The notes beneath the pieces were generated by a model. The model worked only from the letters and a program-made list of their open reading frames with translations. It did not search any database and was not told where the DNA came from. Source: a virus (Duplodnaviria > Heunggongvirae > Uroviricota > Caudoviricetes). Taken from it: a stretch of 64,000 nt of DNA. The stretch is taken from positions 24,100 through 88,099 of IMG/VR virus record IMGVR_UViG_3300031963_000058; one strand, 5' to 3'. The position numbers were made by a program, and so were the translations under genes. This document shows, piece by piece, positions 13,039-46,381 of the stretch (its first letter is position 1; the number at the start of each line of letters is the position of its first letter).

Positions 13039-13063
13039 ATAAAAAAAATAAAAAAACAAAAAA

Positions 13064-13453
13064 ATGATAAATTCTGTTAGCGAAGAGCAAAAATTAAAAA
13101 CATTAGCAATAAATACTGTAAGTAGAGAGCTCGAAGTAAATTCATACGATTTAAATATTCGTAATTATAAAGCAATTTTAGATTCGTTACCAACGGGCGA
13201 ATGGCCTGTAGAGATTTTACAATATAAATATTTAGATATAGCCTCAGTTCCGCACGAACATGTTGAAAATGTTTCTAAATTTAATTTTAGAGATAGATTA
13301 GATTATTTACTAAGAACTGAAGTTAATGAACGGACTAAATCTTTTATGTTATATCAGGCAATGTATAATCAATTACCTGATGACAGGCTTGAAGAATTAT
13401 TAACGTTTGCTTATAATTATATTACCACACCTCAAAATACAACACCCGTATAA
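13064..13453 (+). CDS. hypothetical protein (129 aa)
   Basis: ORF. Confidence 0.45.
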   Translation: MINSVSEEQKLKTLAINTVSRELEVNSYDLNIRNYKAILDSLPTGEWPVEILQYKYLDIASVPHEHVENVSKFNFRDRLDYLLRTEVNERTKSFMLYQAMYNQLPDDRLEELLTFAYNYITTPQNTTPV

Positions 13454-13729
13454 ACATATGAAATTTACAATTTTTACTGGGTTTTATAAGTAAAATAAAT
13501 GATAGAGAAGATGTTGACACTTTGGGAAATTATTTAGATAATTGTATACCAAAAAAACAACTTGTTATTAGTAGTGATCGTGAATTACAACCTGTTATAG
13601 AAGAAATGTTACAAAGTAAAAGATTTTCCTGGTTTTGGTTTATCTTGAATAAATATCATGTTGTTGTAAATTTTTCTTAAAAACTACTTGACTAATCTGA
13701 TAAATATTGATATTTATTGTTCGTTATAT

Positions 13730-13801
13730 TGCGGAGTGGAAAAAGGGTTACTTCATTAGGCTCATAACCTAAAGGTCCTGGTTCGAGTCCAGGCTCCGCC
13801 A
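13730..13801 (+). tRNA. tRNA with CAT anticodon (Met or Ile2/lysidine type)
   Basis: Cloverleaf folded by hand. Acceptor GCGGAG pairs with CTCCGC, and U8 is present. D-arm GAA/TTC with GGG in the loop. Anticodon stem TTAGG/CCTAA with loop CTCATAA (U33, CAT, A37). T-arm CCTGG-TTCGAGT-CCAGG. The anticodon stem is not the GGG/CCC initiator type. Confidence 0.6.
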
Positions 13802-14700
13802 CAAATTAGTTCTTTGATAGAAGATATTGGCCGTGTGTGGTCATTAAATAAACTGCGAAAGCAGGATAAAGTGGTTAGTATGCTAAAAACATACTACTGC
13901 GGCTTGTTACCGAGCTTGAGCACACAAGTGAGATATTATTATTCCTCAGTAGTTGAGGCCGACGGTGTAGGCGAAATGGAGTAATAATCCCGTAAATGTG
14001 GATTGCGGGGTTGAGGTCGGAAGACCAATAAGATTAACTCATAGGGTTCTTGCAAGAGATTAGGAATATCCAGTCTAATTATTGCGGTATCCAATGTAAT
14101 AGGTGTCTTAAAACCGAAAGGTAATGTAGTATTTCAGGTGGTGCTGGTATTACGCTCCTTACAGATTACCAGTCTGTATCGAAGAGATGTCTTGAAGCAT
14201 GATGATGGGGACATCATATCGAGTTGTAAAGTATTATTTAACTCAAAAGGTTAGATAGCTTTGACGGTAGACCGCAACTTGATTTTATCCACAACTTAAC
14301 TAAAAAAGTTCATTATTTATGTTTAGAATGAATAACTACTGAATAATTATAGCAAAAGTGTCTACCGGACGCTACGAAAAGAAATGCCTACATAGTCACG
14401 AGCAGTTCGTGGCATATAATGACCGCAAGTTGTTATGTATTCTTACAAAATATCTCTAGGCCCTCGAAAGCTTAGTCAGTCTTGCCGGATTGAAGAGAAT
14501 AGATTAGTAAGAGAGAGAGTAGCGTCAAGAATGTGTGACTCACATAAAAGTCGGCATTGGTTGCTACCATCCAAAAGATGTTAGTGGATATTAAGGGAAC
14601 CAATAATCCTTATAAAGGCAACTGTTAAAAAGTGTAATCTCAGCTTTTTATTTTTTATTACCTCATTTTAGAAAATTGCCATAAATTTGTGGCTTAGTTA
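13802..14700. ncRNA. ORF-free, GC-elevated ~0.9 kb segment; candidate structured non-coding RNA or degenerate region
   Basis: No ORF of 60 aa or more on either strand, despite gene-dense flanks. Composition is visibly GC-richer than the surroundings. It lies directly downstream of the tRNA. Confidence 0.3.
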
Positions 14701-14702
14701 TA

Positions 14703-15026
14703 ATGACCGGCACTCTGCTGGTCATTTCTTTTGTAACATTTAAAATTAAAAAAATGGATTTCAGAACTAAAGCACAATTATTGGTAATCTCCGGATTCAA
14801 AGTAGATGATTTTTATGTCGGAAAATCAGGCAAGATTTATGTTATAAATCGAGGTTCTAATTTCATTAACTTCTCAGATGGATCAAATATATTGATTTGT
14901 AAATCAAGGTTAGGATTTACTTTTCTAAAGGGTAATCGATTAGAAAGCACTTTATCAAATATTGAAGAATATTTGCGTAATTTAGAGTATTTATATAAAT
15001 ATGAGAAAGAGGCAATTGATATATGA
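14703..15026 (+). CDS. hypothetical protein (107 aa; alternative start MDFRTK at 14754)
   Basis: ORF. Confidence 0.4.
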   Translation: MTGTLLVISFVTFKIKKMDFRTKAQLLVISGFKVDDFYVGKSGKIYVINRGSNFINFSDGSNILICKSRLGFTFLKGNRLESTLSNIEEYLRNLEYLYKYEKEAIDI

Positions 15027-15588
15027 GACATTTTCTCAGCCGTCAAATTATAGTACTTATTTAGCTGATGATAATAGAGTTTATTCAACCTTTTCTGTCG
15101 ATGGGTTTGAGTATATAATAGATGTATTATTTATTGAGGTTGAAGATGATTCTAATCGTTTAGAGTTAACATATGACGTACTAGTTGACTTAAGAAGTGT
15201 TGGTAGAAAATATAAATTAACAAAAAACAATCATCCTTTCAAATTAGCGTCTAATATAATTTGGCTTTTAGATTACCTTATGGGTCGTTATTCAGTTATT
15301 AAAACATATCAAAATTTAAAATCTTTTATTTGTATTAAATCAATTATTTATAAGCCTTTATTTATTTGGGATAAAGAATTTTTAAAAGCCATAAAATTTA
15401 TGTTTAAAAATTCATTATCACCATATACTGAAAATGACTATAAAGAAGCAATAAATAAAAGAGATAAATTTTTCCGATATTGTATTGAAAAATATGTACA
15501 AGAAAAAGGTGTTAGAGTTAAATTTGAAAGCTGGTCGTCTTTTAAAGATCATATAACAGCAAGATTTATTCCTGGGTTAAAAATTTAG
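15001..15588 (+). CDS. hypothetical protein (195 aa)
   Basis: ORF. The antisense ORF 14837..15088 is rejected. Confidence 0.5.
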   Translation: MRKRQLIYETFSQPSNYSTYLADDNRVYSTFSVDGFEYIIDVLFIEVEDDSNRLELTYDVLVDLRSVGRKYKLTKNNHPFKLASNIIWLLDYLMGRYSVIKTYQNLKSFICIKSIIYKPLFIWDKEFLKAIKFMFKNSLSPYTENDYKEAINKRDKFFRYCIEKYVQEKGVRVKFESWSSFKDHITARFIPGLKI

Positions 15589-15621
15589 GTAGAATATTTT
15601 ATTTATTCAGAAAAGATTTTG

Positions 15622-15629
15622 TATCTTTG
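15622..15629 (+). promoter_or_regulatory. Bacteroidota-type -7 promoter box TATCTTTG
   Basis: TAnnTTTG motif about 15 nt upstream of the ATG at 15644. Confidence 0.5.
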
Positions 15630-15643
15630 TCCTATCAAAAAAA

Positions 15644-15937
15644 ATGAACATGGACACAACAAAAATTTGCCGAGTAAAAATAATTCACGAAAAATTTGGT
15701 CTGATTTGCGATGAGACATTTTTAAATCCTACGCAATTTAAACTATTCCTTAAATCTATTGATGGGTGTCTAAATGGAGAAAACCACCTGAGATTTTTTA
15801 ATGGGGAGGATTTTCTTATCAACATTCCAAATGTTGTATTAAAAAATTGTATAGTTTCCACCTCAGTCATAGCTAAACTTACTGATGGTGAAATTATACT
15901 TGAAAACCTACGTTCAGGCCTAGAACAAAAAGTGTGA
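15644..15937 (+). CDS. hypothetical protein (97 aa)
   Basis: ORF preceded by a TAnnTTTG box. The antisense ORF 15685..15996 is rejected. Confidence 0.5.
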   Translation: MNMDTTKICRVKIIHEKFGLICDETFLNPTQFKLFLKSIDGCLNGENHLRFFNGEDFLINIPNVVLKNCIVSTSVIAKLTDGEIILENLRSGLEQKV

Positions 15938-15938
15938 T

Positions 15939-16547
15939 ATGAAAATAAAGATAATTGGAGATGCTCATGGTGAGCTGAGAAAATACAAAAAAGCAATCAA
16001 AGATTGTCACATGTCCATATGTGTTGGTGATTTTGGTTTTAAAAAAGAATGGACTTGGCATATCAAAAATATTGGACCTAATCATTGGATTAATCCTGGT
16101 AATCACGACTATATGCCTATGGCCGTAAAAGACGAATATCCGTCAACAGGCAATAGCAAATACTTTGAGGAATATTCAATTTTTACAGTTAGAGGTGCTG
16201 ATTCTATTGACAAACATCATAGGGTTGAAGGTAAAACTTTCTTCAGTAATGAAGAGATGAGTTACGCTGAAAGCCTACAAGTTGTTGATAACTATCTTAA
16301 AATTAAACCTAAAATAGTAGTATCTCATGATTGCCCACAAAGAATTATGAGTATGCTATTTGGTTATACGGATAAATCTACAACCAGGCAAGCACTACAA
16401 GCTATGCTTGATGATCATAAACCGGATTTTTGGATCTTCGGACATCATCATCATTCTTTGAATGAAATAATTGATGGTGTTAGATTTATCTGCCTCGATG
16501 AACTTGAACAATACATTTTTAACTTTAATGACATTAATAATGGATAA
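15939..16547 (+). CDS. calcineurin-like metallophosphoesterase
   Basis: Motifs GDAHG, VGDFG, GNHD and GHHH appear in the canonical order for this fold. Confidence 0.8.
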   Translation: MKIKIIGDAHGELRKYKKAIKDCHMSICVGDFGFKKEWTWHIKNIGPNHWINPGNHDYMPMAVKDEYPSTGNSKYFEEYSIFTVRGADSIDKHHRVEGKTFFSNEEMSYAESLQVVDNYLKIKPKIVVSHDCPQRIMSMLFGYTDKSTTRQALQAMLDDHKPDFWIFGHHHHSLNEIIDGVRFICLDELEQYIFNFNDINNG

Positions 16548-16794
16548 CGATAATATCATAAAAGATCTTGTTAACATGATGTTTAAACATGCTGAAGTCA
16601 ATGTTACTTACGATGACGTAGTAAATAGGCAAGATGCATGGTATCATGATTGGACTATAACCGAAGAAAAAGAAAAATCGTTTAAACAAGAGGCAATTAA
16701 ACATGTGCAGAAATTAAAAAAATGGCCAAAATATATTGCTGAAAGCAATGTTAATTTTTTTATTTGTAACTATGGTCTTAAAAGATCTGATTAG
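16540..16794 (+). CDS. hypothetical protein (84 aa)
   Basis: The start ATG overlaps the stop of the upstream gene (ATGGATAA). The listed ORF extends to 16471, but that part lies inside the previous gene. Confidence 0.45.
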   Translation: MDNDNIIKDLVNMMFKHAEVNVTYDDVVNRQDAWYHDWTITEEKEKSFKQEAIKHVQKLKKWPKYIAESNVNFFICNYGLKRSD

Positions 16795-16809
16795 TGATAT
16801 TTATTTAAT

Positions 16810-17097
16810 ATGGCCAAAATTATAATAACAACGGAACAATTAGCGACTCTCGTTAGAGAGCCATCTCAGGATGGGGAAGATCTTAAAACTAAGTTACATG
16901 AGATGTCAGTAATTTGTGAAAATTTGTGGCAAGTTATTGAATCTGAACAATATCAAATGACTGAAAATTTAAGAGATAAAATATCTGTATGCCATTCTGA
17001 GATAATTAACATTGCGAGAATTGTTAATTCTGGAGATATTAAGAATAATAAAAACCCCAATATAAATTTCGACGATTTAATTATAGGTACAAAATGA
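16810..17097 (+). CDS. hypothetical protein (95 aa)
   Basis: ORF. Confidence 0.45.
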   Translation: MAKIIITTEQLATLVREPSQDGEDLKTKLHEMSVICENLWQVIESEQYQMTENLRDKISVCHSEIINIARIVNSGDIKNNKNPNINFDDLIIGTK

Positions 17098-17270
17098 ATG
17101 ACAGGCTTTTTGAAGAATTACTTTGGAGATCAGAAAAATTAGGTTGTTATGGTGAAGTTCTGGACGAGGTTATTAGAACGAAAAACGCTGATCCGGCAAA
17201 AGAACTAGCGGATATTGCACAAGAAGTTTTAATTACGTTGTTTGGAGAAGAGGAATTATTTAATAAGTAG
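17094..17270 (+). CDS. small acidic hypothetical protein (58 aa)
   Basis: Unlisted ORF; its ATG overlaps the upstream stop (ATGA). It is followed by a strong terminator. Confidence 0.3.
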   Translation: MNDRLFEELLWRSEKLGCYGEVLDEVIRTKNADPAKELADIAQEVLITLFGEEELFNK

Positions 17271-17292
17271 ATTTTAGCAACTATTTACTTAA

Positions 17293-17332
17293 TAGCTTTT
17301 ACGCACTAAATAAGCGTAAAAGCTATTTTTTT
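17293..17332 (+). terminator. Intrinsic terminator hairpin (TAGCTTTTACGC / GCGTAAAAGCTA, 12-bp stem) plus a T7 run
   Basis: Perfect inverted repeat and T-run ahead of the gene at 17335. Confidence 0.7.
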
Positions 17333-17334
17333 AT

Positions 17335-17694
17335 ATGAAAGTCAAATTATCAGTTTCGGAGTTAGTACTATTTCATTTAGTGCAAAGGTTTGTATACCAG
17401 TATCATACACTATTTTCAGTACATAAAACGCATGGGGCCTTAGAAGACCTAACCAAATTATGGTTTATAAAAATATTCGTCAATAACGATTATTTCCAGA
17501 ACATGCCAAATTCATATTTAGTTGATTATGAGATAGATCAGCTTAAAAATTTATTAATAGTGTTTAGAGGTGCTTTAACATACCATAGTTTTTATGTATC
17601 TTTAGACAAACCCATCAACTCGTGTGTAAAATACGCAAACAACGAGTTTTCGGAAGATGACATTAACATTTTTTCAATTGAATATTTACTATGA
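17335..17694 (+). CDS. hypothetical protein (119 aa)
   Basis: ORF. Confidence 0.45.
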   Translation: MKVKLSVSELVLFHLVQRFVYQYHTLFSVHKTHGALEDLTKLWFIKIFVNNDYFQNMPNSYLVDYEIDQLKNLLIVFRGALTYHSFYVSLDKPINSCVKYANNEFSEDDINIFSIEYLL

Positions 17695-18380
17695 ACAGAA
17701 AGATTACAGTAGAACTTATTGGCTACTATGGTAGCGATAAAACCCATGCTCAAAGTGCTTGGACATCCACAGACAGAGAAATCACAGATGAGAAACTTGA
17801 AAGGATGCCAGATCTATTGAAATATCTAGCAGAGCATAAACATGAAACACCTTTTGAGAAATCACTATTCCACTTTAATATAGAGGTGGAACAGGCCTCA
17901 CACATCCACACATTAAAGCACAGGATTGGCGTTTCGGTAAATGGTGAGTCTGCAAGATACAAAGAACTCACAGACAAATTTTACATTCCTGAAGATTGGG
18001 AGGGAGTTAAAATAAATGACATCAGTGATATTCCTTATTTGGATATGAATAAAGTTTCAGTTGAAACTTGGGCAGATATGCTTAGAGTTTATACTGAATT
18101 GGGGAACTTTTTATATCACAGATCCGCCAGTGAACTAACACCTGTATTGACAAGAAAAAGGGCAAAGGAAAGCTCTCGTTTCTTTAGGACAATGAACTCT
18201 ATGCTGACATTGGATACATCTTTTAACTGGAGATCATTTTATCATTTTTATATGCTTAGAGCCGATAAAACAGCTCAGCTTGAGATCCACATGGTTGCTG
18301 ATAAGATGCTTGAGTGCATTAAAAATATACCAGGAAATCCTTTTAAATACACATTATCCGCTCACGGGTTGGATAAATAA
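17691..18380 (+). CDS. thyX: FAD-dependent thymidylate synthase ThyX
   Basis: HKHETPFEKSLFHFNIEV, the ThyX signature KHRIGVSVNGESARY (RHRx7-8SxRY) and FNWRSFYHFYMLRADKTAQLEI align with conserved ThyX blocks. Length is 229 aa. Confidence 0.8.
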   Translation: MNRKITVELIGYYGSDKTHAQSAWTSTDREITDEKLERMPDLLKYLAEHKHETPFEKSLFHFNIEVEQASHIHTLKHRIGVSVNGESARYKELTDKFYIPEDWEGVKINDISDIPYLDMNKVSVETWADMLRVYTELGNFLYHRSASELTPVLTRKRAKESSRFFRTMNSMLTLDTSFNWRSFYHFYMLRADKTAQLEIHMVADKMLECIKNIPGNPFKYTLSAHGLDK

Positions 18381-18413
18381 TTTCTTCAGATATTTATATA
18401 AAAAAATACTATT

Positions 18414-18851
18414 ATGAGCAAATTTACGAAGGCTGACTTGATCAATTCATTGATCGGCGAGCAAGACACTGTTAAAATAACAAAAACTGAAGGTGTTGAT
18501 ATGTTTGTATCGGATATATTAACATCCAGGAATCAATCTCATGTTTTTCATTTACAAACAAAATCATATGCAGAGCACAAGGCGTTGGGCTCATATTATG
18601 AGGGTATTGGTGATTTAATTGATGGATTTGTTGAATCTTATCAAGGGAAATACGGCATAATTGGAAGTTTTGACTGTGAAGGTATTGAGAATTACAGTAG
18701 TTCAGAACAAGTAATCTCTTATTTTAAAGGCCTAGCAGATAACATCGAAATATCCAGGAAAGAGATAAAAGATTCTTATCTTCAAAATCAGGTAGATACT
18801 ATATTGGAATTAATATATTCTACCTTGTATAAACTAAAATACCTAAGTTAA
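18414..18851 (+). CDS. hypothetical protein (145 aa), possibly a ferritin/Dps-like helical fold
   Basis: ORF with only a weak resemblance to Dps N-terminal helices. Confidence 0.4.
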   Translation: MSKFTKADLINSLIGEQDTVKITKTEGVDMFVSDILTSRNQSHVFHLQTKSYAEHKALGSYYEGIGDLIDGFVESYQGKYGIIGSFDCEGIENYSSSEQVISYFKGLADNIEISRKEIKDSYLQNQVDTILELIYSTLYKLKYLS

Positions 18852-18854
18852 ATT

Positions 18855-19175
18855 ATGGAACAAACATTGTGTTTAACATCAAAAAACCAAGATACGGTTT
18901 TTTCAACAAAATTATCTAGAAATTTATGTGAAATTGCGACAAATGTTGGCCTTTATAGAATTCTTTGGAAACCTAATGCGGTTGGAATAAAAGCTGCCAG
19001 AGAATTGATAAAACCTATAAGCAGTGGCCTAGATAAATTAAAAGAACAAGAAGACGTTTATATAAACTCAGAAGATGAGAAGATAAAAACTGCTTACAAA
19101 GAATTTATCCCATTATTGGAGAATTATCTCAGAGCGTGTAAAATGTTTCCTAATTCTTTTGTTGATGTTAATTAA
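18855..19175 (+). CDS. hypothetical protein (106 aa)
   Basis: ORF followed by a hairpin. Confidence 0.45.
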   Translation: MEQTLCLTSKNQDTVFSTKLSRNLCEIATNVGLYRILWKPNAVGIKAARELIKPISSGLDKLKEQEDVYINSEDEKIKTAYKEFIPLLENYLRACKMFPNSFVDVN

Positions 19176-19180
19176 CTGAA

Positions 19181-19210
19181 AGCCCCCACCTAAAATGGGG
19201 GCTAATTTGC
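19181..19210 (+). terminator. Hairpin AGCCCCCA / TGGGGGCT followed by a T-rich tract
   Basis: 8-bp GC-rich stem separating the upstream genes from the 10-gene paralogue block. Confidence 0.55.
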
Positions 19211-19225
19211 TATTATATAATTTGT

Positions 19226-20185
19226 ATGATTAAGTTAGTATCGGACTTCGAAATTAAATTATTTAGTTATTTAGATAAAAAATTAAAAAACAAGGATCTG
19301 TTTTCAGTGTCTAATGAAAATTATTTTGGAATGATATTATTCGTTCGCAAATATTTAAGATATTTCGGGATTTTGTACCCTAATTCTGACGACTATTATG
19401 GTATTAAATATTTGTGTTATAATATAATAGCAAAAAATAGAAATAAAAAATTAATTGATCTTGATTTTAAAGATTTGATTGGTCAAAAATTTAAAATTAG
19501 AAATCGCGAGTTACAAAATGCATTTATTCTAAATTTTTTAGAGTATGATTGTGTAGACGCTTCTACAATAAGCCGCTGGATTAATCAATCAGATACTGGG
19601 CTTAAATATGTATGTTATGAAAAAAGGTTTAGTGATGTGGTGCCTTTTTTTGCTTATGTAAATAATGAGAAATATAAGTTAAAATACAACACGGTAAATA
19701 CTTTTGGCCGTAATATAAAGTTACCGAAAGGAATAACTGACGAAACTCGTCATGTTACGTTATTTGAGTTAGAGACCGTTATTAATAGTAAAATTGACAA
19801 AGATAATTCATTTAAAAAAGCCATATACGATCAACTTGCTGTTGATTTTACTAAAGGGTTTAAGTTAGGGGATGATCAGCAAAACAGATATTATATTTCA
19901 GCCCCACCAGATGAAGATACGGATATTTACTTTAAATTTACTAGTATAAGAAATGAAAATGAAAAAATTATTTTTGATATAAAAATAATCAATATAATAG
20001 ATGCTGAAAACAACTCAAAAATTAACCCTAAGGATCTTAGCCTAGATGAAAAAATTGCTATTAAAAATAGGGTGCATGATAAGGTGTATTTTTTAATTCA
20101 ATTTGATAAACATGGGTATGATTTAAATACAAGTGTTTTTAGTGCGGATTCTATAGATTTGTCAGATATAAATATTAAATTCTAA
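19226..20185 (+). CDS. member 1 of the ~300-aa tandem paralogue family
   Basis: Shares the N-terminal helix pattern (SDFEIKLFSYLDKKL) and the central W..GLKYV...NG..YY motif with the next nine genes. Confidence 0.6.
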   Translation: MIKLVSDFEIKLFSYLDKKLKNKDLFSVSNENYFGMILFVRKYLRYFGILYPNSDDYYGIKYLCYNIIAKNRNKKLIDLDFKDLIGQKFKIRNRELQNAFILNFLEYDCVDASTISRWINQSDTGLKYVCYEKRFSDVVPFFAYVNNEKYKLKYNTVNTFGRNIKLPKGITDETRHVTLFELETVINSKIDKDNSFKKAIYDQLAVDFTKGFKLGDDQQNRYYISAPPDEDTDIYFKFTSIRNENEKIIFDIKIINIIDAENNSKINPKDLSLDEKIAIKNRVHDKVYFLIQFDKHGYDLNTSVFSADSIDLSDINIKF

Positions 20186-20196
20186 TCAATATTTTT

Positions 20197-21096
20197 ATGC
20201 CAGAATTTTTCACAAAAAGGGAAATAGTTGCATTTGAAAGCATAGATAAATACATTAGTGAAAATGTATTATCTAATATTGTCTTTCAAAATGACCAGCA
20301 GAAAGATATGCTTTCTATGTATAACAAATATCATGATGAGATAAAAAATGCTTTTTTAAAAAAAATACCTTTTTTTGGTTATCAAAGAGATAACTTTGGA
20401 TTTATGTTTTTTAAATATATTTTTAGCTCACATGTTTGTTATAAACATAATAAAAACCGTAAATCTTTAACTCAAGAAGATTTTATGGAAAGTCATATAC
20501 GTGGTCCTGGTTTTATGCATAATCAGTCAGCAGTTTCTGCTGCGATTTTTTTTAAAGTACCATTTACACTTAAATCTATAGGTAAATGGGTAAATTTTAA
20601 AGGACAAAAATATGTTGTAATTACTGATATAAATGGGAGCCGGATTATTTCTTGGATTTATTCTGGAGGTATTCTTTATAGGAATAAAATAGCTTTTCCT
20701 GACTGGCAAGAATTTGACACATCAAATCTTGGGCCAGACATCCGTTTAGTGAATGATCCTGAGATGTCGATTATATATGATAATCGTTCAGCAGATATCG
20801 AAAAAGCAGCAATAATTAGTATGGGTCGAAAAGCTAAAACATATATCGATTTATTATTGACAGCGAGAACTCTTTCTGAAAAAAATGTGGATTTAAAAAT
20901 TATTGGCGTATCTTTCTCTAAGAGGACATTTAAATTTAAGTTTAAAGTTATAGGCCAATATCTTACTAACAGTTTATATGAAGAACTAATAAACGGCGGA
21001 GCGATAAAAGTTGCTCTTATTAATTCTTACATAATAAGAATTTATCGTAATTTGATAGATATATCAAAATTAAATTTTATAATTGAAGTAGAGTAA
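20197..21096 (+). CDS. member 2 of the ~300-aa tandem paralogue family
   Basis: Contains GKWVNFKGQKYVVITDINGS. The antisense ORF 20527..20709 is rejected. Confidence 0.6.
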   Translation: MPEFFTKREIVAFESIDKYISENVLSNIVFQNDQQKDMLSMYNKYHDEIKNAFLKKIPFFGYQRDNFGFMFFKYIFSSHVCYKHNKNRKSLTQEDFMESHIRGPGFMHNQSAVSAAIFFKVPFTLKSIGKWVNFKGQKYVVITDINGSRIISWIYSGGILYRNKIAFPDWQEFDTSNLGPDIRLVNDPEMSIIYDNRSADIEKAAIISMGRKAKTYIDLLLTARTLSEKNVDLKIIGVSFSKRTFKFKFKVIGQYLTNSLYEELINGGAIKVALINSYIIRIYRNLIDISKLNFIIEVE

Positions 21097-21097
21097 T

Positions 21098-22027
21098 ATG
21101 AGTAGAGTTTTATCTAAATTTGATATAACACTTTTTAGTGCGGCTGATAGGTTAATTTATCAAAAATTTATGTTATATGCTCCATCTATGGCTGACGAAT
21201 TTATTGGTGATATGGCTAGTGCATATGTTAATAACATTGTGAATAGAGAATTTATTATGAAAACGTTTAAATCTGTTTTATCTAGATTGGGGGTATCTAC
21301 AGCAGGGATGATGTTTAATTATTATTTTGGTAGATACATACATTTTTCAACGATAAAAAATTTATTTGGTAAAAATTATTCAGAAATAGATATTAATGAT
21401 TTAATGAAACTGCCGCAACAAAAAACTGTAGTTTCATTTATTCCGGCTCTTTTAATTTCTAAAATTCCATTTAAAACAGCTCAAGGAGCTGTTGGAGCAT
21501 CCAAATGGATTAAGGATAAAGGCAATAATTATGTTTATTATAACAATTCTATCGAAGATCAGGCATCATTTGTATATTCAAATGGAGAATACTATTATTT
21601 TGCACCAAATATTCCTTTTGATAATATTGCAAAAAAATTTAACCTTATTTCTGTTGGACCAAGTTTAATAAATTATATTGCCGAAAATGACTATACTTTG
21701 GAACAAGTTAAAAAATTTGTTCATAAAAAAGTATATGAATATTTCCAGGTATACTTTGGGTCTATAACCGTTAATATAGCTGGCCATGTTTCTGAAAAAT
21801 TTTTAGTCAATGAAGTTAAAAAAACAAAAAATGGCTTTAATTTTAAAATTACTTCTGAGAAAAATTCAATAACTTCAGGATCTAAAGCTTATTTTGAGGA
21901 TGTAGTGAAAGATAGATTATTAAAATCTATAATGGGGGAGCCATATGAATATGCTCTTGATATTCCGAATAAATATGAAATAAACGTAGAAATTAAAATA
22001 TATGGAAAATCTAATAACAAAAAGTGA
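21098..22027 (+). CDS. member 3 of the ~300-aa tandem paralogue family
   Basis: Contains SKWIKDKGNNYVYYNNS...SNGEYYYF. Confidence 0.6.
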   Translation: MSRVLSKFDITLFSAADRLIYQKFMLYAPSMADEFIGDMASAYVNNIVNREFIMKTFKSVLSRLGVSTAGMMFNYYFGRYIHFSTIKNLFGKNYSEIDINDLMKLPQQKTVVSFIPALLISKIPFKTAQGAVGASKWIKDKGNNYVYYNNSIEDQASFVYSNGEYYYFAPNIPFDNIAKKFNLISVGPSLINYIAENDYTLEQVKKFVHKKVYEYFQVYFGSITVNIAGHVSEKFLVNEVKKTKNGFNFKITSEKNSITSGSKAYFEDVVKDRLLKSIMGEPYEYALDIPNKYEINVEIKIYGKSNNKK

Positions 22028-22090
22028 AACCGCACTATATGAGTATCTTGATAAGTATATACATAAACATTTAAAAATTAAAAGCGGGTT

Positions 22091-23035
22091 GTGGAAAGAT
22101 TATTAAATAATAGAGATGTTATTTCTTATGGTATAATTAATAAATATATTAATCATATTTATCGCAAATATTTTGGTGATAGCCCGCCGGAGAAGTATAT
22201 AAATCCTAGTTTCCTCACAAAAATATATGATGATTATATTTATTTACCTGATTTTAGTCAATTTTCATTTAAAGAACTTATGAAGTTATTAAATAAATTG
22301 GGTTATTATAATGTTAATCCACGACGAGAGATTGTCAAATATCTTTTGTATTCAGAGATTGCTGCAAGAAATAATAAACCGGTTAAAGATCTAACAATGT
22401 CAGATGTAATTAATTTTACACCTATCCTTGTATCAAGGCCTGATTTTTTACCGGCAATATCGTTATTGGTGCCAAGCAGATCAAAATCATTTATCTCAAA
22501 TTGGGTTGAAGTTAATGGCTTAAAATATGTTGTTAAAAAAAATCAAAATTTAGCTCTAGTTTATACTAATGGGGTATATTATTATAATGATAACGTATTT
22601 AATCATTCAAGTCCCCCATATATTGGGACATATTTACCAAATAAAGAAAAATCGACTGCTCGTGAATTAAATATAATTATGAATCATGATTTTAGCCATG
22701 AAGAGTTAGTTGATTATCTTACAAAATTAAATTTTAAAAAATTAAAAAAATTTTTGACAGAGCAACTGAAATTTGATGCTAATTTTAAAGATGAAGGGTT
22801 GGTTTTGGATGATTTTAAAATATTAGATAAAATATTAATCGTTGATCTTAAAACACCACTTAACCGTGATATTTCTAATTTATCGGAAAAAAGTATACAT
22901 AAACTTGGAGACGGCATTGCAACTTTTATTCATATGTCATATAATAACATAGGTAACTTATCTAACTTTTCATACTCTAGGGTTCGGTTAAACATAAACG
23001 GTATTAATGTTTATAATTATGGGCATAGTATTTAA
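22091..23035 (+). CDS. member 4 of the ~300-aa tandem paralogue family (GTG start)
   Basis: Contains SNWVEVNGLKYVVKKN...YTNGVYYYND. The GTG start is supported by alignment with the N-termini of the paralogues. Confidence 0.6.
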   Translation: MERLLNNRDVISYGIINKYINHIYRKYFGDSPPEKYINPSFLTKIYDDYIYLPDFSQFSFKELMKLLNKLGYYNVNPRREIVKYLLYSEIAARNNKPVKDLTMSDVINFTPILVSRPDFLPAISLLVPSRSKSFISNWVEVNGLKYVVKKNQNLALVYTNGVYYYNDNVFNHSSPPYIGTYLPNKEKSTARELNIIMNHDFSHEELVDYLTKLNFKKLKKFLTEQLKFDANFKDEGLVLDDFKILDKILIVDLKTPLNRDISNLSEKSIHKLGDGIATFIHMSYNNIGNLSNFSYSRVRLNINGINVYNYGHSI

Positions 23036-23921
23036 TAGTCGTGAAATATTTTTTTTAAAAAAAGTTGAAGAGTCATTATATGAAGCTGCGAAGACTTTTC
23101 AGTATTATAATCCAGTTAGAAAACTGAAAATTAGTTTCGATTTATATCGATATATTTACCTATCAGCAGGTTTTGCTCAAAAATCGGAAGAAATTTTCAT
23201 TAAAAAAGCTAAATTTTTTGGAATACAAGGTGATTTAACCGTTTTATATGTCAAATATATACTTTGCTCAGAAATAGCGGCAAAGTTAGATAAGCACATA
23301 AATTATTTGACACAAAAGGATATTATAAATGCGAAAGATATCTTAGTAAAAGATAACGAGTGGGCGACAGCAGCAATTGCTAATTTGATACCTTTCACTG
23401 GGGATGATATGAAAGCTGTTTGGGTTAACAAGAATGGTCTTAAGTATAAAGTTTATAGTTCAGGACTTTGGTTTATATATACAAATGGGGAGTTCTACTA
23501 TAATTATGATACATATAATTTCACTATCCCAAGTATTTTTAGTGATTTTGCTAGACCTTGTTCAATCCGTGATCTTGAAGTTATAGAAACCTATGATTTA
23601 GATTATAGTGGTTATATAGATAAAATAAAGAAATTAAGTATAAAAGAATTGAAACGTATGTATGAAGTACATGAAGATGGAAAATATATAAAATATCTTG
23701 CAGAAACTCAGTCCAAGCTAATTAAAATTGATTACTCCGGAAAAGAAAATATAAATTTTTATTTTAAATCAAAAATAAAAACAGATGAATTATTAAATAA
23801 TGTGGCTAAAACGCTTCTTCATGTAATGAATAATTTACAACGTAGTGCTTTCATCTTTCATAGCCGTTTGTTAGATTCTGGCGAAACTAGTATATACATA
23901 AATGGTAAAAAATATATATAA
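23019..23921 (+). CDS. member 5 of the ~300-aa tandem paralogue family
   Basis: Contains AVWVNKNGLKYKVYSS...YTNGEFYYNYD. The start was chosen at MGIVFNSREIFFL by paralogue alignment; the ORF extends to 23007. Confidence 0.55.
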   Translation: MGIVFNSREIFFLKKVEESLYEAAKTFQYYNPVRKLKISFDLYRYIYLSAGFAQKSEEIFIKKAKFFGIQGDLTVLYVKYILCSEIAAKLDKHINYLTQKDIINAKDILVKDNEWATAAIANLIPFTGDDMKAVWVNKNGLKYKVYSSGLWFIYTNGEFYYNYDTYNFTIPSIFSDFARPCSIRDLEVIETYDLDYSGYIDKIKKLSIKELKRMYEVHEDGKYIKYLAETQSKLIKIDYSGKENINFYFKSKIKTDELLNNVAKTLLHVMNNLQRSAFIFHSRLLDSGETSIYINGKKYI

Positions 23922-24859
23922 TGGCCAAATATTTTAGTAATTTCGAAGTAAGAGCTTTTGATTTAATTGATAAATCACTACGTGCTTATATTAAAAAATT
24001 TCTTTCGGAAAGAAGACTTAAACCGTATGATATCCCCCCAGGAATTTTTGATATATTTTTTTACACTACGAAAGATATTCTGTCTTTAAATTATAATATT
24101 AGGGTGGTTTTTTACAAGCAAAGTAAGTTTCTTGGGTTAAAACCGAATAGTAATTATGAAACTTATTACTTTTATAAGTATCTTATTGCTACACAGATAG
24201 CATATAAGCTGGGTAAAAGTAGAAGTGAATTGACGTTTACTGATATCTCGAATTCGGAACAAATTATAATCAATGAAGGTTTCATGGATAATATTTGTTT
24301 GTATTATTTATTTCCTTTTCGCTCTACACGTGGTCATTATGATTCATCTGGACTCTGGGATAAATCTAAAGGGTTAAAATATTTATACTACTATAGTAGA
24401 ACTAATCTTGTATCTATATTTTCTAACGGGGTACAATACGTAAACGAATTTTATACCTCATCAGAGGTTTCTCCAGAATTTAGCAAAAAATACGTTAGTG
24501 CGAATGCATACGATTTGAAAGTTATTGAAAAACTTGATTTAGATTATGATGGAGTGCGCAATAAGCTTCTTGAGCTTGAAGCTAAACGAGTTGAAAGATT
24601 GTACAAAAAGATTATTAAGATACGCAGGTTTGCTTTGATATTCGAAAACTATCCTTTTAATGTTAGGTTATCTAAAATAGTTTTTAATAAAAAAGATTTA
24701 AAGTTTCACTTTACAACTGATCCGATTGACGATGAGGTTAAAACTAATTTAAGGCATGAACTATTGCCATTGGTTTTTGAGGTTTATTATAAATATAGCC
24801 CAAAAAGTAAAGTATTAAATTTGGGAACTTTAGTTTTTTCTCTACTACTCAATGAGTAG
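23921..24859 (+). CDS. member 6 of the ~300-aa tandem paralogue family
   Basis: Contains GLWDKSKGLKYLYYYS...FSNGVQYVNE. Confidence 0.6.
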   Translation: MAKYFSNFEVRAFDLIDKSLRAYIKKFLSERRLKPYDIPPGIFDIFFYTTKDILSLNYNIRVVFYKQSKFLGLKPNSNYETYYFYKYLIATQIAYKLGKSRSELTFTDISNSEQIIINEGFMDNICLYYLFPFRSTRGHYDSSGLWDKSKGLKYLYYYSRTNLVSIFSNGVQYVNEFYTSSEVSPEFSKKYVSANAYDLKVIEKLDLDYDGVRNKLLELEAKRVERLYKKIIKIRRFALIFENYPFNVRLSKIVFNKKDLKFHFTTDPIDDEVKTNLRHELLPLVFEVYYKYSPKSKVLNLGTLVFSLLLNE

Positions 24860-24887
24860 ATATTTATAAATATAGTATTAAAAAATT

Positions 24888-25829
24888 ATGTTAGAAGGAT
24901 TAACCAAGCAAGATATTGTTATATTTAACACCATAGACAAACAGATAGGTCTTACTTTAGGTGGTCCTAAATTATATGATCTTATATCTGGAGATGAGTT
25001 GCATGATCATATATCTCGTATATTAAAATATTTTGGTATACCAAATAAGTTTAATAGCGCGTCACGTAAGTGTTACATAGTATATTTTGCTTTAACAGTT
25101 TTATCCCAGATACGCAAAAAAAAGATATCTAAATTAACAATAGATGATATTATTAATGCGGAGATATATAATATAGACGCTGATAATGAAATGACAGCTC
25201 AACTAATAAAATTTAAAATTAAGTTTTTAAGTGAAAAATATAAATCGAATTGGGTTGACGAGGGAAATGGGTATAAATATATTATTCGGGATACTGATAC
25301 TAATGACATCGTTTATCTTTATAATGGCGTAAAACATTATGGGTACTATGGTTTAGTTAACACAAGTATTTTTATAGAACTTAAATCTTTATTTATTATA
25401 CCTGTTAGCCATTCAGATATGGCTGCAATTAGCAAACTACCTAATTTAAATTATGAGTCTATTTTGGGTTTAGTAAAAACTAAATTTATAGATTGTATTA
25501 AAAAATTTCTATACACTGAACTTAAAAATTTTGAGCATTATTATTTCATTGATGGTGAAACTATATTATTAGATTTAACACTAGAAAAAGTTCGTTTAAA
25601 AGATCTGAATATTACACTGCACGTATCCGTAGATAAGAATAAGGTTAGACGTGAGGTAAACAAAAATACTGTTGATTTAGAAGATATCTTTTTAAAAATA
25701 AAAAAAGATAAAAATTTTGAAAATAAGATTACTGAATATTTTCTAACCCAAATTAAACTAAACGCAGATTGTGATAGTAGATTATGGAGTACATATAAAT
25801 TTAATTTTAAGACGGTTATTGATGTATGA
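24888..25829 (+). CDS. member 7 of the ~300-aa tandem paralogue family
   Basis: Contains SNWVDEGNGYKYIIRD...LYNGVKHYGYY. Confidence 0.6.
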   Translation: MLEGLTKQDIVIFNTIDKQIGLTLGGPKLYDLISGDELHDHISRILKYFGIPNKFNSASRKCYIVYFALTVLSQIRKKKISKLTIDDIINAEIYNIDADNEMTAQLIKFKIKFLSEKYKSNWVDEGNGYKYIIRDTDTNDIVYLYNGVKHYGYYGLVNTSIFIELKSLFIIPVSHSDMAAISKLPNLNYESILGLVKTKFIDCIKKFLYTELKNFEHYYFIDGETILLDLTLEKVRLKDLNITLHVSVDKNKVRREVNKNTVDLEDIFLKIKKDKNFENKITEYFLTQIKLNADCDSRLWSTYKFNFKTVIDV

Positions 25830-26749
25830 AAATAATGCTTACAATTTCTCCATTAGAGAAAGCTCTTAGAGTATTGATTGAAAGAGAACTTAAAATATAC
25901 CTAGAAGATTTTAACCAAAACATAATGTCTGATAGTTTTAGTTTAGGCGTTGTTATTCATAGGATGACCAGACGTCTTGAAAAACTAAAAATGCCTAGCT
26001 ATAAATTTCAGTCTTTTACGATTAATATGGCGGTTTCTCGTTATATCTATTTAAAATTACTATCACAAAAATTAAATAAACCTGTAAACGAAATAACAGA
26101 GTCTGACGTTTATAATGCAAAGCCAATACAAATTCCCACATTTTATGCTGAGGAAATGTTTGGAATTATCCGGGGGGGATTTCCTTTTACAGCAAAAAAA
26201 ATATGGATTTTTAAATCTCCATCTAATAAAAGTATTGTCGGTTCTTGGGATATAAAATCAAAAAGATATGTAGCTAGAACTTCAGATAATATTTTACTTG
26301 GTATTATTCTTGAAAATGGTATTTTTTATTACGATGAAGAATTATTTGATGTAGTTATCTGGCTTAATGGTATAGTTCCTTGTAAACAAGAGGATCTTAG
26401 GGTTATATTAAACACAAAAAATCGGGATATAATTGGGGCAATTAGTGAAAACCTTACGGAGTCTTTCTGTGATAATGCTAAGGATCATTTTGGTGTTACG
26501 GGTTTTTATCGTGAGTGGGATTTTTTTTATTCCGCGAATGCAACATTTGAAGTAGATTCAAGGGCTAAAAAAATGACAGTAAACATAAATATAGTTAGTG
26601 CTCCAGATGATTATGATGATCAGCTTATAGATAATATTAAGAGTACCTGGTGGCATGGTATTTATAAACAATATTCTGACTATGTTTATAGTAAATCAAA
26701 ATTAAGTGAGTTATATAATTTAAATATTAACTTAAATTTTAATACGTAG
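25826..26749 (+). CDS. member 8 of the ~300-aa tandem paralogue family
   Basis: Contains GSWDIKSKRYVARTSD...LENGIFYYDEE. Confidence 0.6.
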   Translation: MKIMLTISPLEKALRVLIERELKIYLEDFNQNIMSDSFSLGVVIHRMTRRLEKLKMPSYKFQSFTINMAVSRYIYLKLLSQKLNKPVNEITESDVYNAKPIQIPTFYAEEMFGIIRGGFPFTAKKIWIFKSPSNKSIVGSWDIKSKRYVARTSDNILLGIILENGIFYYDEELFDVVIWLNGIVPCKQEDLRVILNTKNRDIIGAISENLTESFCDNAKDHFGVTGFYREWDFFYSANATFEVDSRAKKMTVNINIVSAPDDYDDQLIDNIKSTWWHGIYKQYSDYVYSKSKLSELYNLNINLNFNT

Positions 26750-26770
26750 TAAAAATTATTAAATAAAAAT

Positions 26771-27667
26771 ATGGAACCAAAGATATTCAGTTTTGAACCT
26801 AATTTATATAGAACATTTAATAAATTTATGGGGTATGATCCAAAAAAAATGATGTTTAAATATGCCCCAGGATATGCTAGTTTTATTAGTGGAGGTAAAT
26901 TATATACCAGATTTGTAAAATTAATGGAGACTTTAAATGTTGAAGATAGTACAGGGTATCCTACCAAATTGTTTTATATGCGATACTATTATTTAACTTT
27001 ATTATCCGAAAAATTGAATAAAAGCCTAAGTCAGATTACCGTTGATGATATAATAAATAATGTCCTTAACATTAATGTTGGTTATTCGGTAATAGGAGAA
27101 CTGGTTGCATTTGGGTTTCCTATTATGTCTGATAATTTTCATTCCAAATGGGAGCATAGAAAAAATGGGTTTAAATATGTTGGTAGAAATCCTACGGGGA
27201 TGATAAATTTAGTTTCATTTAATAACATGGTTTTTCATGAAAATGATCTTTTTACTAAATACTATAATATATATGATGTAATGAATAATAAACAGTGTAT
27301 TATTGCAAAATGCAAAAAGAATGATCTTAATATAGTTTTAAACCAAAGTTCGGATGCTGACTTCGATTATATTGTAGCTGTTATATTAAGAACAATCACT
27401 GATGACTTTAAAACTTACATAAAAAGTGATGATGCACGTTTAGTTCATATTAAATTAAAAGACGTTTTTAGTATTATTTTAGATAATGTTGTTGTAAATC
27501 ATGAAGATAGAACAGTAAATTTTTATTGCCGTAAAATAAATAAATTTATGGATAAAATTAGCTTATATTCTGGTCAACAATATCTTGATCGCCAATACAA
27601 AGAATTCCTTATAAAGAAAACTGAGTTTTTGAATTACAATTATCGATGCGCAGTCAATTATATATAA
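26771..27667 (+). CDS. member 9 of the ~300-aa tandem paralogue family
   Basis: Contains SKWEHRKNGFKYVGRN...SFNNMVFHEND. Confidence 0.6.
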   Translation: MEPKIFSFEPNLYRTFNKFMGYDPKKMMFKYAPGYASFISGGKLYTRFVKLMETLNVEDSTGYPTKLFYMRYYYLTLLSEKLNKSLSQITVDDIINNVLNINVGYSVIGELVAFGFPIMSDNFHSKWEHRKNGFKYVGRNPTGMINLVSFNNMVFHENDLFTKYYNIYDVMNNKQCIIAKCKKNDLNIVLNQSSDADFDYIVAVILRTITDDFKTYIKSDDARLVHIKLKDVFSIILDNVVVNHEDRTVNFYCRKINKFMDKISLYSGQQYLDRQYKEFLIKKTEFLNYNYRCAVNYI

Positions 27668-27683
27668 AAACCACAACAAACTA

Positions 27684-28610
27684 ATGAAGCCTAAAATTTC
27701 TGATTTAGAATTTAAAGTATATTCTCTAATAGAAAAGAGATTCTCTGAATTAAGCTCAGAAGAATTTTCTTTAGCTATGATTGACATGAGTAGTTATCCT
27801 TATAGAACTTTTATAAAGTTAGTTGAGACATTTTCTTTGGATAAGATATTTGATTTACCTCCATTTATTTTCACGCTCAGATATCGTTATTTAACAGAAT
27901 TATCCAGAGTGAAAGGTATTCCTCGTTCAAAAATAACAGAAAAAGATATTTTTGGGTCTAAATTAGTTTTTCCTGTAAGTACTAATGAATCTTTATTATT
28001 AGGTTTGTGTGGATTTCCATTTATTTCGGGAATTGTAGTTGGTGAGTGGTATAAAGGTAGGGATAAAAAATACGTATGCCGTGAAATTGGGGGGGAAATA
28101 AATTATATTGCCTACAATAATGTTAATATTATTCAAAATATTAACAAATATCATAGTGATCCTAATATTATGTCGAAATCTTTTTATGGTAAACAATTAA
28201 AACATATTATCAGACAGGCAACTACATTTGATTTAGAATTTGCGTTAAAACAAAGAACAACAGAAATATATGTGATAATACATAATTTAACTATGTATTT
28301 TTTTGAACAATTTAAAAAACATGTTATGAGCAAGAAGTTTATTGATGTTTCAAGTAATAGAAATCTAACTAAATATATTGTGATAACAGATATGGTAGTT
28401 AAAAATTCAGAAATAAATGTTAAATATAACCTATTAACAAATAGGCCGGAAATATTTAATTATGAATATTTTAAGAAAACTAAAAATGAGTTAGTTGAAC
28501 ATATATATATGACCTTAGTTTTAATGTATATTACAGTAGCAACCAATTCTAATCTTCATAATAGATATAGTCTAGTTGTTGGGAAACCTGAATTAATTGA
28601 GCAGTTATGA
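27684..28610 (+). CDS. member 10 of the ~300-aa tandem paralogue family
   Basis: Contains GEWYKGRDKKYVCREIGGEINYIAYNN. Confidence 0.6.
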   Translation: MKPKISDLEFKVYSLIEKRFSELSSEEFSLAMIDMSSYPYRTFIKLVETFSLDKIFDLPPFIFTLRYRYLTELSRVKGIPRSKITEKDIFGSKLVFPVSTNESLLLGLCGFPFISGIVVGEWYKGRDKKYVCREIGGEINYIAYNNVNIIQNINKYHSDPNIMSKSFYGKQLKHIIRQATTFDLEFALKQRTTEIYVIIHNLTMYFFEQFKKHVMSKKFIDVSSNRNLTKYIVITDMVVKNSEINVKYNLLTNRPEIFNYEYFKKTKNELVEHIYMTLVLMYITVATNSNLHNRYSLVVGKPELIEQL

Positions 28611-28656
28611 TTTACAAACCATCATTTATTTATTATTTTTGATCTAAATAAATAAA

Positions 28657-29481
28657 ATGAAACAAACAAAAACATATCACGAACTAGTCTCTAAAATGAG
28701 ATCTTTCTTTTTATCTAAAGGATGGATTGAGGTACCTACTCAGTCCAGATTATCAATACTCGCTGCGTGCGAAAATCCCCACTCTGTGGCGACTTTTGAA
28801 TACGATGGAGTAGTATGGCCTCTACCACAAACGGGTCAAATGTGGCTTGAATATGAGCTTCTGAAGAACCCTGATTGGCCAGGTGTGTTTTGCGTCTCCA
28901 CATCATACCGTAATGAGAAAAACCCGATCCCTGGAAGACATGAGAAAATTTTCCCTATGTTTGAATTTGAGTCAAAGGGGGGATTTGCTGAGCTTAAAAA
29001 ATTGGAGGCTGAACTTCTAGATTATCTAGGATTTTCTAGCCCGGTTAGTAGAAACTATGACGATATGTGTGATGAATACGGAGGGGTTCCTATTTTAGAG
29101 GATGAGCACGAATCTAGGATGTGGAAAGAACTTGGTAATGTTATATCTTTAGAGAAATTTCCATACAGGACATCTCCATTTTGGAATATGAAACATGCTG
29201 GAAATGATCTATTTAATAAGATAGATATTATCCTTTATGGGCAGGAAACAATTGGATCTGCGGAAAGATCTTGTGACGTTAATTATATGAGGCAAATGTT
29301 CTATAACATAATGGATGGGGCATATGCCAATAAACTTTTTGAATTATTTGGTAGAGAACGAGTTGAGAAAGAATTGGAAGAATTTCTTAGTTTAAATTTC
29401 TTTGAGCGATTTGGTGGAGGTATTGGTTTAACAAGGTTAGCTAGGGCTTACGAAATGCTTAAGGAATCTAGCCAAGTTTAA
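28657..29481 (+). CDS. AsnA-like / class II aminoacyl-tRNA-synthetase catalytic-core-like protein (Asp/Asn subfamily) lacking an anticodon-binding domain
   Basis: Motif 2-like SYRNEKNP...RHEKIFPMFEFE (fRnE...RH.xEFTMxE) and motif 3-like FGGGIGLTRLA (GGGIGxxRL, as in AsnA/AsnRS). At 274 aa it is too short for a full AsnRS. Confidence 0.55.
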   Translation: MKQTKTYHELVSKMRSFFLSKGWIEVPTQSRLSILAACENPHSVATFEYDGVVWPLPQTGQMWLEYELLKNPDWPGVFCVSTSYRNEKNPIPGRHEKIFPMFEFESKGGFAELKKLEAELLDYLGFSSPVSRNYDDMCDEYGGVPILEDEHESRMWKELGNVISLEKFPYRTSPFWNMKHAGNDLFNKIDIILYGQETIGSAERSCDVNYMRQMFYNIMDGAYANKLFELFGRERVEKELEEFLSLNFFERFGGGIGLTRLARAYEMLKESSQV

Positions 29482-29493
29482 AAATAAAATATT

Positions 29494-45974: not shown

Positions 45975-46361
45975 ATGAAACTAAAGAGATTTGAACTAAC
46001 AGAACTATATCTGGAGATTATAGTTATTCTTGGTATAATTCTCACATTTATAATAATCTTTTTTTCTGTTAATATAATTAAAAACTCAGGTTATATGAGT
46101 GAAAAATTACTTACACATTGTGACGGTGTTCCGTCACAACATTCAGTTGGTGACAGCGTTAGAACTAAAGAAAATATATGTAGCCTTCTAAGAACACATA
46201 TATTATATCGACGAAACGATAATACAGGAATTGAGGAATATCTCGGAAAAGATTGTAAGATTGTCGAAGTCCGTTATACTGAAGAGTATAAATGTTACAT
46301 ATATCTGATAGATATTGACAATGGTGATTATTGGTGGGTTGATGAATCTTTTACAAATTAA
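45975..46361 (+). CDS. hypothetical protein with an N-terminal TM segment (128 aa)
   Basis: ORF. Confidence 0.45.
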   Translation: MKLKRFELTELYLEIIVILGIILTFIIIFFSVNIIKNSGYMSEKLLTHCDGVPSQHSVGDSVRTKENICSLLRTHILYRRNDNTGIEEYLGKDCKIVEVRYTEEYKCYIYLIDIDNGDYWWVDESFTN

Positions 46362-46381
46362 ACATATTTCAAAAAAATATC

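Follow-up and report, generated by a model that had tools for sequence, protein, structure and literature searches.

How does a large phage come to carry ten strongly diverged copies of one gene side by side, and what might those copies do? The question is raised by a 64,000-nucleotide stretch of viral DNA (Caudoviricetes; positions 24,100 to 88,099 of IMG/VR record IMGVR_UViG_3300031963_000058), here called the window. An array of ten co-directional open reading frames (ORFs), each encoding 298-319 amino acids (aa), occupies 19226-28610 on the + strand, as a first-pass annotation of the sequence had reported. The array is an ancient, in-place amplification of one resident single-copy gene of about 335 aa, and the copies then diverged radically. 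The proteins of the array family and of its parent family are undescribed; as a kind, the lineage-specific tandem multigene family is familiar from large DNA viruses. The ten paralogues (par1 to par10) are listed below; L numbers refer to related loci.

19226-20185, + strand: par1, 319 aa; the copy nearest to the parent family; orthologues 98% (L003), 90% (L001) and 31% (L007) identical
20197-21096, + strand: par2, 299 aa; orthologues 95%, 69% and 35% identical, the last being L007_2 (P0013)
21098-22027, + strand: par3, 309 aa; distant orthologue P0018 24% identical
22091-23035, + strand: par4, 314 aa; GTG start, from which the N-terminus matches the family pattern
23019-23921, + strand: par5, 300 aa; longest ORF from 23007; the copy used for the structure model
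23921-24859, + strand: par6, 312 aa; found by BLASTP and the family profile
24888-25829, + strand: par7, 313 aa; found by BLASTP and the family profile
25826-26749, + strand: par8, 307 aa; distant orthologue P0016 30% identical
26771-27667, + strand: par9, 298 aa; found by BLASTP and the family profile
27684-28610, + strand: par10, 308 aa; distant orthologue P0015 33% identical

The start of par5 is most likely at 23019 rather than 23007, because its orthologues are 300 aa long and the family N-terminus aligns there.

All ten genes belong to one true and highly diverged paralogue family, which bears out the earlier claim. In an all-versus-all BLASTP comparison they form a single network, with significant pairs ranging from 1e-21 to 2e-5 (par4-par5 1e-21, par5-par6 7e-18, par7-par9 3e-15, par9-par10 5e-10, par2-par5 4e-9, par8-par4 1e-7, par1-par5 1e-5 and par3-par6 2e-5). 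The family hidden Markov model (HMM) recovers each copy at E 1e-61 to 5e-70 among the 243 ORFs of the window. Pairwise identity between copies is 21-33%. An N-terminal helix is conserved across all copies and the remainder diverges; the landmarks PF, W, KY and D-L/M are retained by nearly all of them, and four residues are invariant in the ten-copy alignment (Y62, D83, W118 and Y128 in par1 numbering). Isoelectric points (pI) of 7.6-9.4 make the proteins mostly basic. Only part of the central block W(V/I)xxxG..KY..NG..YY that the annotation had attributed to all ten copies is general: its W and the Y of KY are present in 10/10 and its G in 8/10, but NG is found in 6/10 and YY in 4-5/10. No catalytic motif is recognisable, as had been noted; there are just four invariant residues, and most invariants of the parent family have been lost. 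A GIY-YIG homing endonuclease, which the KYV...NG.YYY string brings to mind, was rejected: the motif order and the conserved R, E and N are missing, and the genes are positional orthologues, not mobile insertions.

The genes are mostly packed with gaps of 0-30 nt or small overlaps, as described before, with successive spacings of 11, 1, 63, -17, -1, 28, -4, 21 and 16 nt; the 63-nt gap departs from that description, and it contains the remnant of an eleventh copy. The longest direct nucleotide repeat within the array is 41 nt at 76%. Since long nucleotide repeats are lacking, the copies are old duplicates, not recent ones, and the repeat analysis rules out recent duplication or gene conversion. 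Near-identical repeats between copies, as in diversity-generating retroelements or accordion mechanisms, were not found in the array.

The parent family identifies the source of the array. Examples of its members are:

L010, 1229-2236: single 335-aa ORF downstream of a DUF5856 gene
P0097: parent-family member on NCBI contig SXWS01000018.1 (GCA_005789845.1)
P0036: parent-family member on a 286-kb JGI contig

Array-family landmarks can be seen by eye in the L010 protein, and hhalign matches it to the array profile with a probability of 81% (E 1e-5). Comparison of the array profile with a profile of the whole parent family raises the probability to 97% (E 8.8e-11, 175 columns). The homology covers the N-terminal helical and beta-meander domains, and in par1 the C-terminal domain as well. 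Two parent members are matched by the array HMM, at E 4e-8 and 3e-6; in the opposite direction, the parent HMM directly detects par1 alone among the copies (E 4e-5, C-terminal domain included). The parent family (alignment A4) comprises at least 564 clusters at E <= 1e-3, has a typical length of about 335 aa, occurs on contigs of up to 286 kb and has no Pfam entry or PHROG. Its conservation is strong: 27 positions are invariant, and its motifs include PFKGSN, SYGWYP, YSSST(G/S)(R/K)Q and TPENYLKGE; the invariant core reads PF.GSN, W, D, SYGWYP, W, YSSST, P, TPENY, F.F.H. In contrast to this single, conserved gene, the window has ten copies of similar length, each of which keeps 2-8 of the 27 invariants; just F27, PF and W121 are broadly retained.

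Each of the loci in which the parent gene was found (L010, L042, L088 and L090) has one copy of it. In L010 and L088 it sits after the DUF5856 gene, and in L088 also after a thymidylate synthase gene, which is the slot held by the array in the window. A neighbour-joining tree built without bootstrap places the array in one clade, apart from the parent family. In this tree the six copies of the distant relative L005 form a clade of their own, and window copies W1, W2, W3, W8 and W10 are each joined to their positional orthologues, which are 24-35% identical.

Some parent members carry N-terminal fusions to a Phage_L5_gp82 domain or to an unannotated domain of about 250 aa. The latter is seen in P0088, P0104, P0110, P0124 and P0131 (544-572 aa), where the extension contains the blocks SPLYHHTSE, ISFTRDKNFEPG and ELEERV and has no Pfam or PDB match. 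Its H...S.T...E pattern recalls ADP-ribosyltransferase-like folds, a tentative lead. A short leader, MK.LI[RK].IL[RK]E, stands on unrelated proteins of related large phages (L010 1229; L042 10856; L088 8001; L012, L060, L072; L074). In L074 it is found on eight of the nine members of a family with MORN/YwqK-like G.W.K.EYDD.GN.IY.E hairpin repeats; the ninth has a variant N-terminus. The leader could be a targeting or docking signal. In the parent family it reads MK.LIRRILRE; the array copies of the window lack it.

Divergence has left the architecture of the proteins in place. An AlphaFold2 model of par5, built on a 33-sequence alignment, has a mean predicted local distance difference test score (pLDDT) of 76.4, reaching about 90 over residues 50-160, and a predicted template modelling score of 0.68. 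Its N-terminal domain has six helices (1-121) and is followed by a beta-meander of four strands (132-162) and a lower-confidence mixed alpha/beta C-terminal domain (178-300). The conserved N-terminal helix is packed into the helical domain (pLDDT 83-87). This three-domain scaffold is kept by the array copies. The profile of the parent central domain also retrieves complete proteins of 89-155 aa which consist of that domain alone; some of these have weak matches to PHROGs without known function.

A Foldseek search of the par5 model against viral models gave nothing at E <= 1e-3. The top matches are phage proteins of about 100-120 aa, several of them DUF8033 (E 0.007-0.09, probability up to 1.0, target template modelling score 0.47-0.61). 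Small DUF8033 proteins, such as A0A0U4INH2 of Arthrobacter phage Rings, are thus the best weak structural match; unlike them, the array proteins have two further domains. Pfam scans of the ten copies and of the stand-alone domain proteins contain no DUF8033 match, although the presence of that model in the Pfam copy used is not established. Neither these scans nor tblastn link the array family to DUF8033 by sequence, and no paper on DUF8033 was found in the literature.

Databases of characterised proteins add little to this picture. Scans of the ten copies against Pfam, PHROG, NCBIfam and PADLOC returned scattered single-member hits only (E >= 0.01), and none of the bacterial defence-system families of PADLOC-DB was recorded for any of the ten. 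PDB sequence searches with the array and parent profiles gave nothing below E 0.6. Among 50,697 phage records, no usable match was obtained for the region by megablast, or by tblastn for par5, the L010 parent protein, its central domain or two stand-alone domain proteins. An exhaustive HMM search of 1.84 billion proteins found just 22 cluster representatives that match the array family. The carriers with a described array are:

L003: 10 copies; orthologues 83-98% identical
L001: 11 copies; orthologues 69-90% identical
L002: partial array; nearly the same phage as the window
L007: at least 2 copies, very divergent
L005: 6 copies of 336-346 aa; distant relative

Copy number among relatives is therefore 6, 10 or 11. 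Among 87 loci scanned, the array is confined to L001-L007. It is present in none of the 80 further loci (68-77% identical, contigs up to 565 kb) retrieved through the neighbouring aminoacyl-tRNA synthetase (aaRS)-like gene, these being the best 80 of at least 569 relatives of that gene, and is therefore restricted to one small clade. The carriers are uncultured freshwater phages. The 106-aa gene upstream, used as a query, retrieved no related loci from either of the collections searched. In L005 the aaRS-like gene is followed directly downstream by another lineage-specific array, which comprises at least 13 tandem genes of about 141-163 aa (12135-17862, - strand).

Copies have been lost as well as gained. 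The remnant in the 63-nt gap is:

22002-22106, + strand: deletion scar of an eleventh paralogue, a 34-codon mini-ORF (MENLITKSETALYEYLDKYIHKHLKIKSGLWKDY*) recognised by alignment to the extra gene of L001

That extra gene (P0014, 314 aa, L001 12769-13713) lies between the equivalents of par3 and par4. The scar consists of its first ~19 and last ~12 codons, joined in-frame; it aligns to the two gene ends only, and about 850 nt have therefore been deleted. The same scar is present in L003, where it now has a stop codon. Given the scar in the window and in L003 and the intact copy in L001, the ancestor had at least 11 copies.

The array genes evolve faster at the protein level than their neighbours. 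By the Nei-Gojobori method, the ratio of nonsynonymous to synonymous rates (dN/dS) is 0.19-0.71 for the ten orthologue pairs, with one pair at 1.18, and 0.04-0.18 for four flanking genes. Array values are 3-10 times those of the flanks, lie below 1 in 19 of 20 comparisons and are roughly even along the protein. A separate observation concerns the synonymous rate (dS) to the left of the array: the ThyX and DUF5856 genes have a dS of about 1.0 against L001 (window 17691-19175, L001 8464-9950), compared with 0.11-0.58 for the array genes, despite a regional nucleotide identity of about 88% between the window and L001. This excess may reflect a mosaic recombination history or a shortcoming of the simple estimator.

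The left boundary of the array is marked by a hairpin:

19181-19203, + strand: G/C-rich, terminator-like hairpin from the terminator scan; left boundary of the array

Its position had been given correctly; the stem has 8 G/C-rich base pairs (-15.4 kcal/mol) and the array opens 22 nt beyond it. The hairpin is conserved in every relative found. L001, L003 and L004 carry it unchanged, L007 differs in the loop, and L005, the most distant relative, has a different G/C stem with a T-run. In L007, the two genes to the left of the array have 90% protein identity to those of the window, and array genes 1 and 2 have 31% and 35%. Nucleotide identity between the window and L007 falls from about 85% to about 50% at ~19200, just beyond the hairpin. 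Because similarity breaks so sharply at a conserved hairpin, the array can be described as a hypervariable cassette whose left edge is fixed. Either cassette exchange or very fast local divergence could account for the L007 discontinuity.

No strong internal terminator was predicted within the array by the terminator scan. On its right side are:

28657-29853, + strand: truncated class II aaRS-like gene (274 aa) and gene for a 119-aa protein; Pfam tRNA-synt_2, phrog_29758
29863-29892, both strands: bidirectional terminator hairpin with a 12-bp stem (-19.4 kcal/mol, z -8)

The two genes are probably in the same transcription unit as the array; there is no stable hairpin at the junction (-4.7 kcal/mol, z -0.9). 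Gene orientation flips at 29863-29892, and the hairpin there is the likely end of the + strand unit. A scan for sigma-70 promoters gave no more hits than in shuffled sequence, and Rfam has no match in 18800-30000. The aaRS-like gene (28657-29481, + strand; phrog_29758) has the tRNA-synt_2 domain and no anticodon-binding domain; the best 80 of its at least 569 metagenomic relatives are 68-80% identical. The protein is also found in the Prochlorococcus T4-like phages P-SSM2 and P-SSM7 and in megaphages of 484-735 kb.

What the ten proteins do can be addressed only tentatively. They may be a co-expressed repertoire of non-enzymatic binding proteins, that is, specificity variants for host interaction in take-over or counter-defence; we would give this roughly a 40% chance. 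The argument is drawn from the evolutionary pattern and from the lack of catalytic motifs, and a variable host-interaction role would fit the raised dN/dS, the change in copy number and the cassette-like hypervariability. The amplification in place of a resident single-copy gene to at least 11 copies took place in one small clade, in which the window has kept ten and a scar, a sister lineage eleven, and a distant lineage its own six. On the functional proposal, one transcript, starting at the left hairpin or reading through it and ending at 29863-29892, would yield ten non-enzymatic binding or adaptor proteins. Each copy would recognise a different variable partner, either a host defence or housekeeping factor or a competing element, so that the array would provide a range of specificities with which to take over the host or counter its defences. 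Its diversity would be upheld by the birth and death of genes and by the exchange of cassettes among co-infecting relatives.

Several points weigh against this proposal. No annotated homologue points to a function, and it is gene spacing and hairpins that suggest co-transcription of the array. The dN/dS values exceed 1 in a single comparison, and the protein has no region that stands out; relaxed constraint accounts for the rates as well as diversifying selection does. Because the divergence is old and the positional orthologues are stably kept, the pattern looks more like long-settled sub-functionalisation than an active arms race. Finally, the basic pI and a C-terminal domain weakly resembling RNA-binding KH-like folds of type II, as in RimP, RbfA and uS3, also fit nucleic-acid binding.

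Other functions must be weighed against a specificity repertoire. One is that the proteins are packaged in the virion and ejected into the host, with the N-terminal helix as a targeting element, in the manner of the T4 internal-protein locus or the inner-body and ejection paralogues of phiKZ and SPN3US. Those loci resemble the array in being tandem, diverged paralogues of a few hundred residues with conserved N-termini and differences between phages, and tandem paralogue families of about 300 aa have been described among the head-internal proteins of giant phages (PMC5694885). A helix that is conserved in all copies when the rest diverges, the basic character of the proteins, and a leader shared on unrelated proteins by the parent and other multi-copy families, as a targeting signal would be, all agree with packaging. 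However, the window copies lack that leader, their N-terminal helix is part of a folded domain in the model, and the array lies among nucleotide-metabolism and auxiliary genes, outside any head-gene module. It has no sequence or fold relationship to the T4, phiKZ and SPN3US families and no PHROG head or internal-protein hits. The T4 prohead protease cuts by an L/I-x-E rule; neither L/I-x-E nor S/A/G-x-E recurs consistently after the N-terminal helix of the array proteins. Packaging is accordingly an unlikely explanation. Nucleic-acid-binding regulators, for instance RNA- or ribosome-binding proteins diversified for different RNA or DNA targets, would be in keeping with the pI of 7.6-9.4 and with translation-related genes in the neighbourhood and in relatives (aaRS-like, tRNA, and SmpB in L088). 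A high pI is, however, to be expected in the proteome of any genome of 29% G+C, and the copies have no KH, S1, helix-turn-helix or other nucleic-acid-binding Pfam hit, which makes this role distinctly unlikely.

The first-pass annotation had also offered structural decoration, and diversified tandem families are indeed typical of tail-fibre and receptor-binding loci; the copy number of the array varies between relatives. Here the fold, mostly helical with an alpha/beta part, speaks against a place on the particle: the par5 model has no beta-helix, immunoglobulin-like, collagen or fibre features, and no tail, fibre, decoration or capsid match was found in PHROG or Pfam. The neighbours are non-structural, and the parent, as a strongly conserved single-copy gene, is unlike receptor-binding tips. 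Decoration or receptor-binding proteins therefore have the slimmest chance of all. It is very unlikely, too, that the copies are redundant duplicates drifting under relaxed constraint, the array having arisen neutrally through replication slippage or recombination in an amplification-prone genome. The raised dN/dS, mostly below 1, the lost parent invariants, the deleted copy and several other tandem families in the window, one with 37 copies, would all suit drift. Yet none of the ten ORFs is disrupted and their length is conserved, the landmarks persist in nearly all copies, and dN/dS is below 1 in 19/20 comparisons; positional orthologues are intact and of similar length even at 24-35% identity, for which long-term purifying selection is needed.

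Poxviruses and giant eukaryotic viruses offer well-known examples of large tandem multigene families; to our knowledge, few have been documented in phages, and a literature search on tandem paralogues of jumbo phages found analogies only. Poxvirus genomic accordions and giant-virus paralogue arrays share with this array amplification in place, divergence, gain and loss of copies, and faster protein change than in core genes. By contrast, the present array consists of old copies (21-33% identity, no nucleotide repeats) with stable positional orthologues, and the host is bacterial. The locus shows the whole path, from a surviving single-copy parent through amplification in its slot, loss of invariants with the fold kept, and copy gain and loss with a scar, to a sharp edge. 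Should the copies be specificity variants against host factors, new phage-host interaction proteins could be sought in the array as in a compact natural library, and a widespread, uncharacterised large-phage family of at least 564 clusters would gain a first functional handle. Even if the copies are no more than drifting duplicates, the locus illustrates how very large phage genomes grow.

A second array in the window had been suggested to share a domain with the ten paralogues:

51228-63820, - strand: tandem array of 37 copies of a family of about 100 aa

Support for this suggestion is weak. There is one weak local similarity above shuffled controls: hhalign of the two families gives a probability of 5.4% (P 0.007, score 22.6), and 200 column-shuffled controls gave a mean score of 10.7 and a maximum of 17.1. 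In an hmmsearch between them a single hit reached E 0.0015, with about eight weaker ones falling in the same register. The parent family, by contrast, shows none of this similarity to the 100-aa family (E 0.61). The parent reads FK.G.WYE at the hairpin, and the NG.YYY string is therefore derived inside the array, not inherited. From these comparisons a common domain appears possible, with the odds against it; the link could hold if the 100-aa family had been excised from an array copy. A bolder version of the host-interaction proposal builds on this. The array would be a retired scaffold that has lost its ancestral ligand site and is re-used tenfold as decoys or inhibitors, each neutralising another host defence or factor, with cassettes swapped at the hairpin between co-infecting relatives. 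The 37-copy array could be the excised central domain, in which case at least 47 genes (~22 kb) of one phage would belong to a single domain superfamily. We regard this version as doubtful.

The window appears to be a section of a large phage genome. It is AT-rich (27-37% G+C), contains one tRNA-Met gene and encodes ThyX, DUF5856, the truncated class II aaRS-like protein and an SPFH protein; SLT, NUDIX and DUF3310 proteins are additionally encoded at the loci of relatives. The nearest cultured or assembled relatives of single window genes are T4-like cyanophages, megaphages of 635-735 kb, GAP32-like jumbo phages and a Flavobacterium phage, at 30-56% protein identity. No Shine-Dalgarno-like motif precedes any of the 12 gene starts in 19000-29500, where the upstream regions are A/T-rich. 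This lack hints at a host with weak Shine-Dalgarno usage, such as a member of the Bacteroidota. Further small paralogue families, comprising four tandem genes of 170-188 aa and two triplets, are located at:

34118-36416, - strand: small paralogue family
46346-47110, 48627-49475 and 50261-50731, + strand: small paralogue family
47152-48585: small paralogue family

The genome thus seems generally prone to tandem amplification. Two further ORFs have weak matches that are unusual for phage genomes:

40-1035, + strand: ORF with a weak EF-hand match
11842-13038, + strand: ORF with a weak WD40/beta-propeller match

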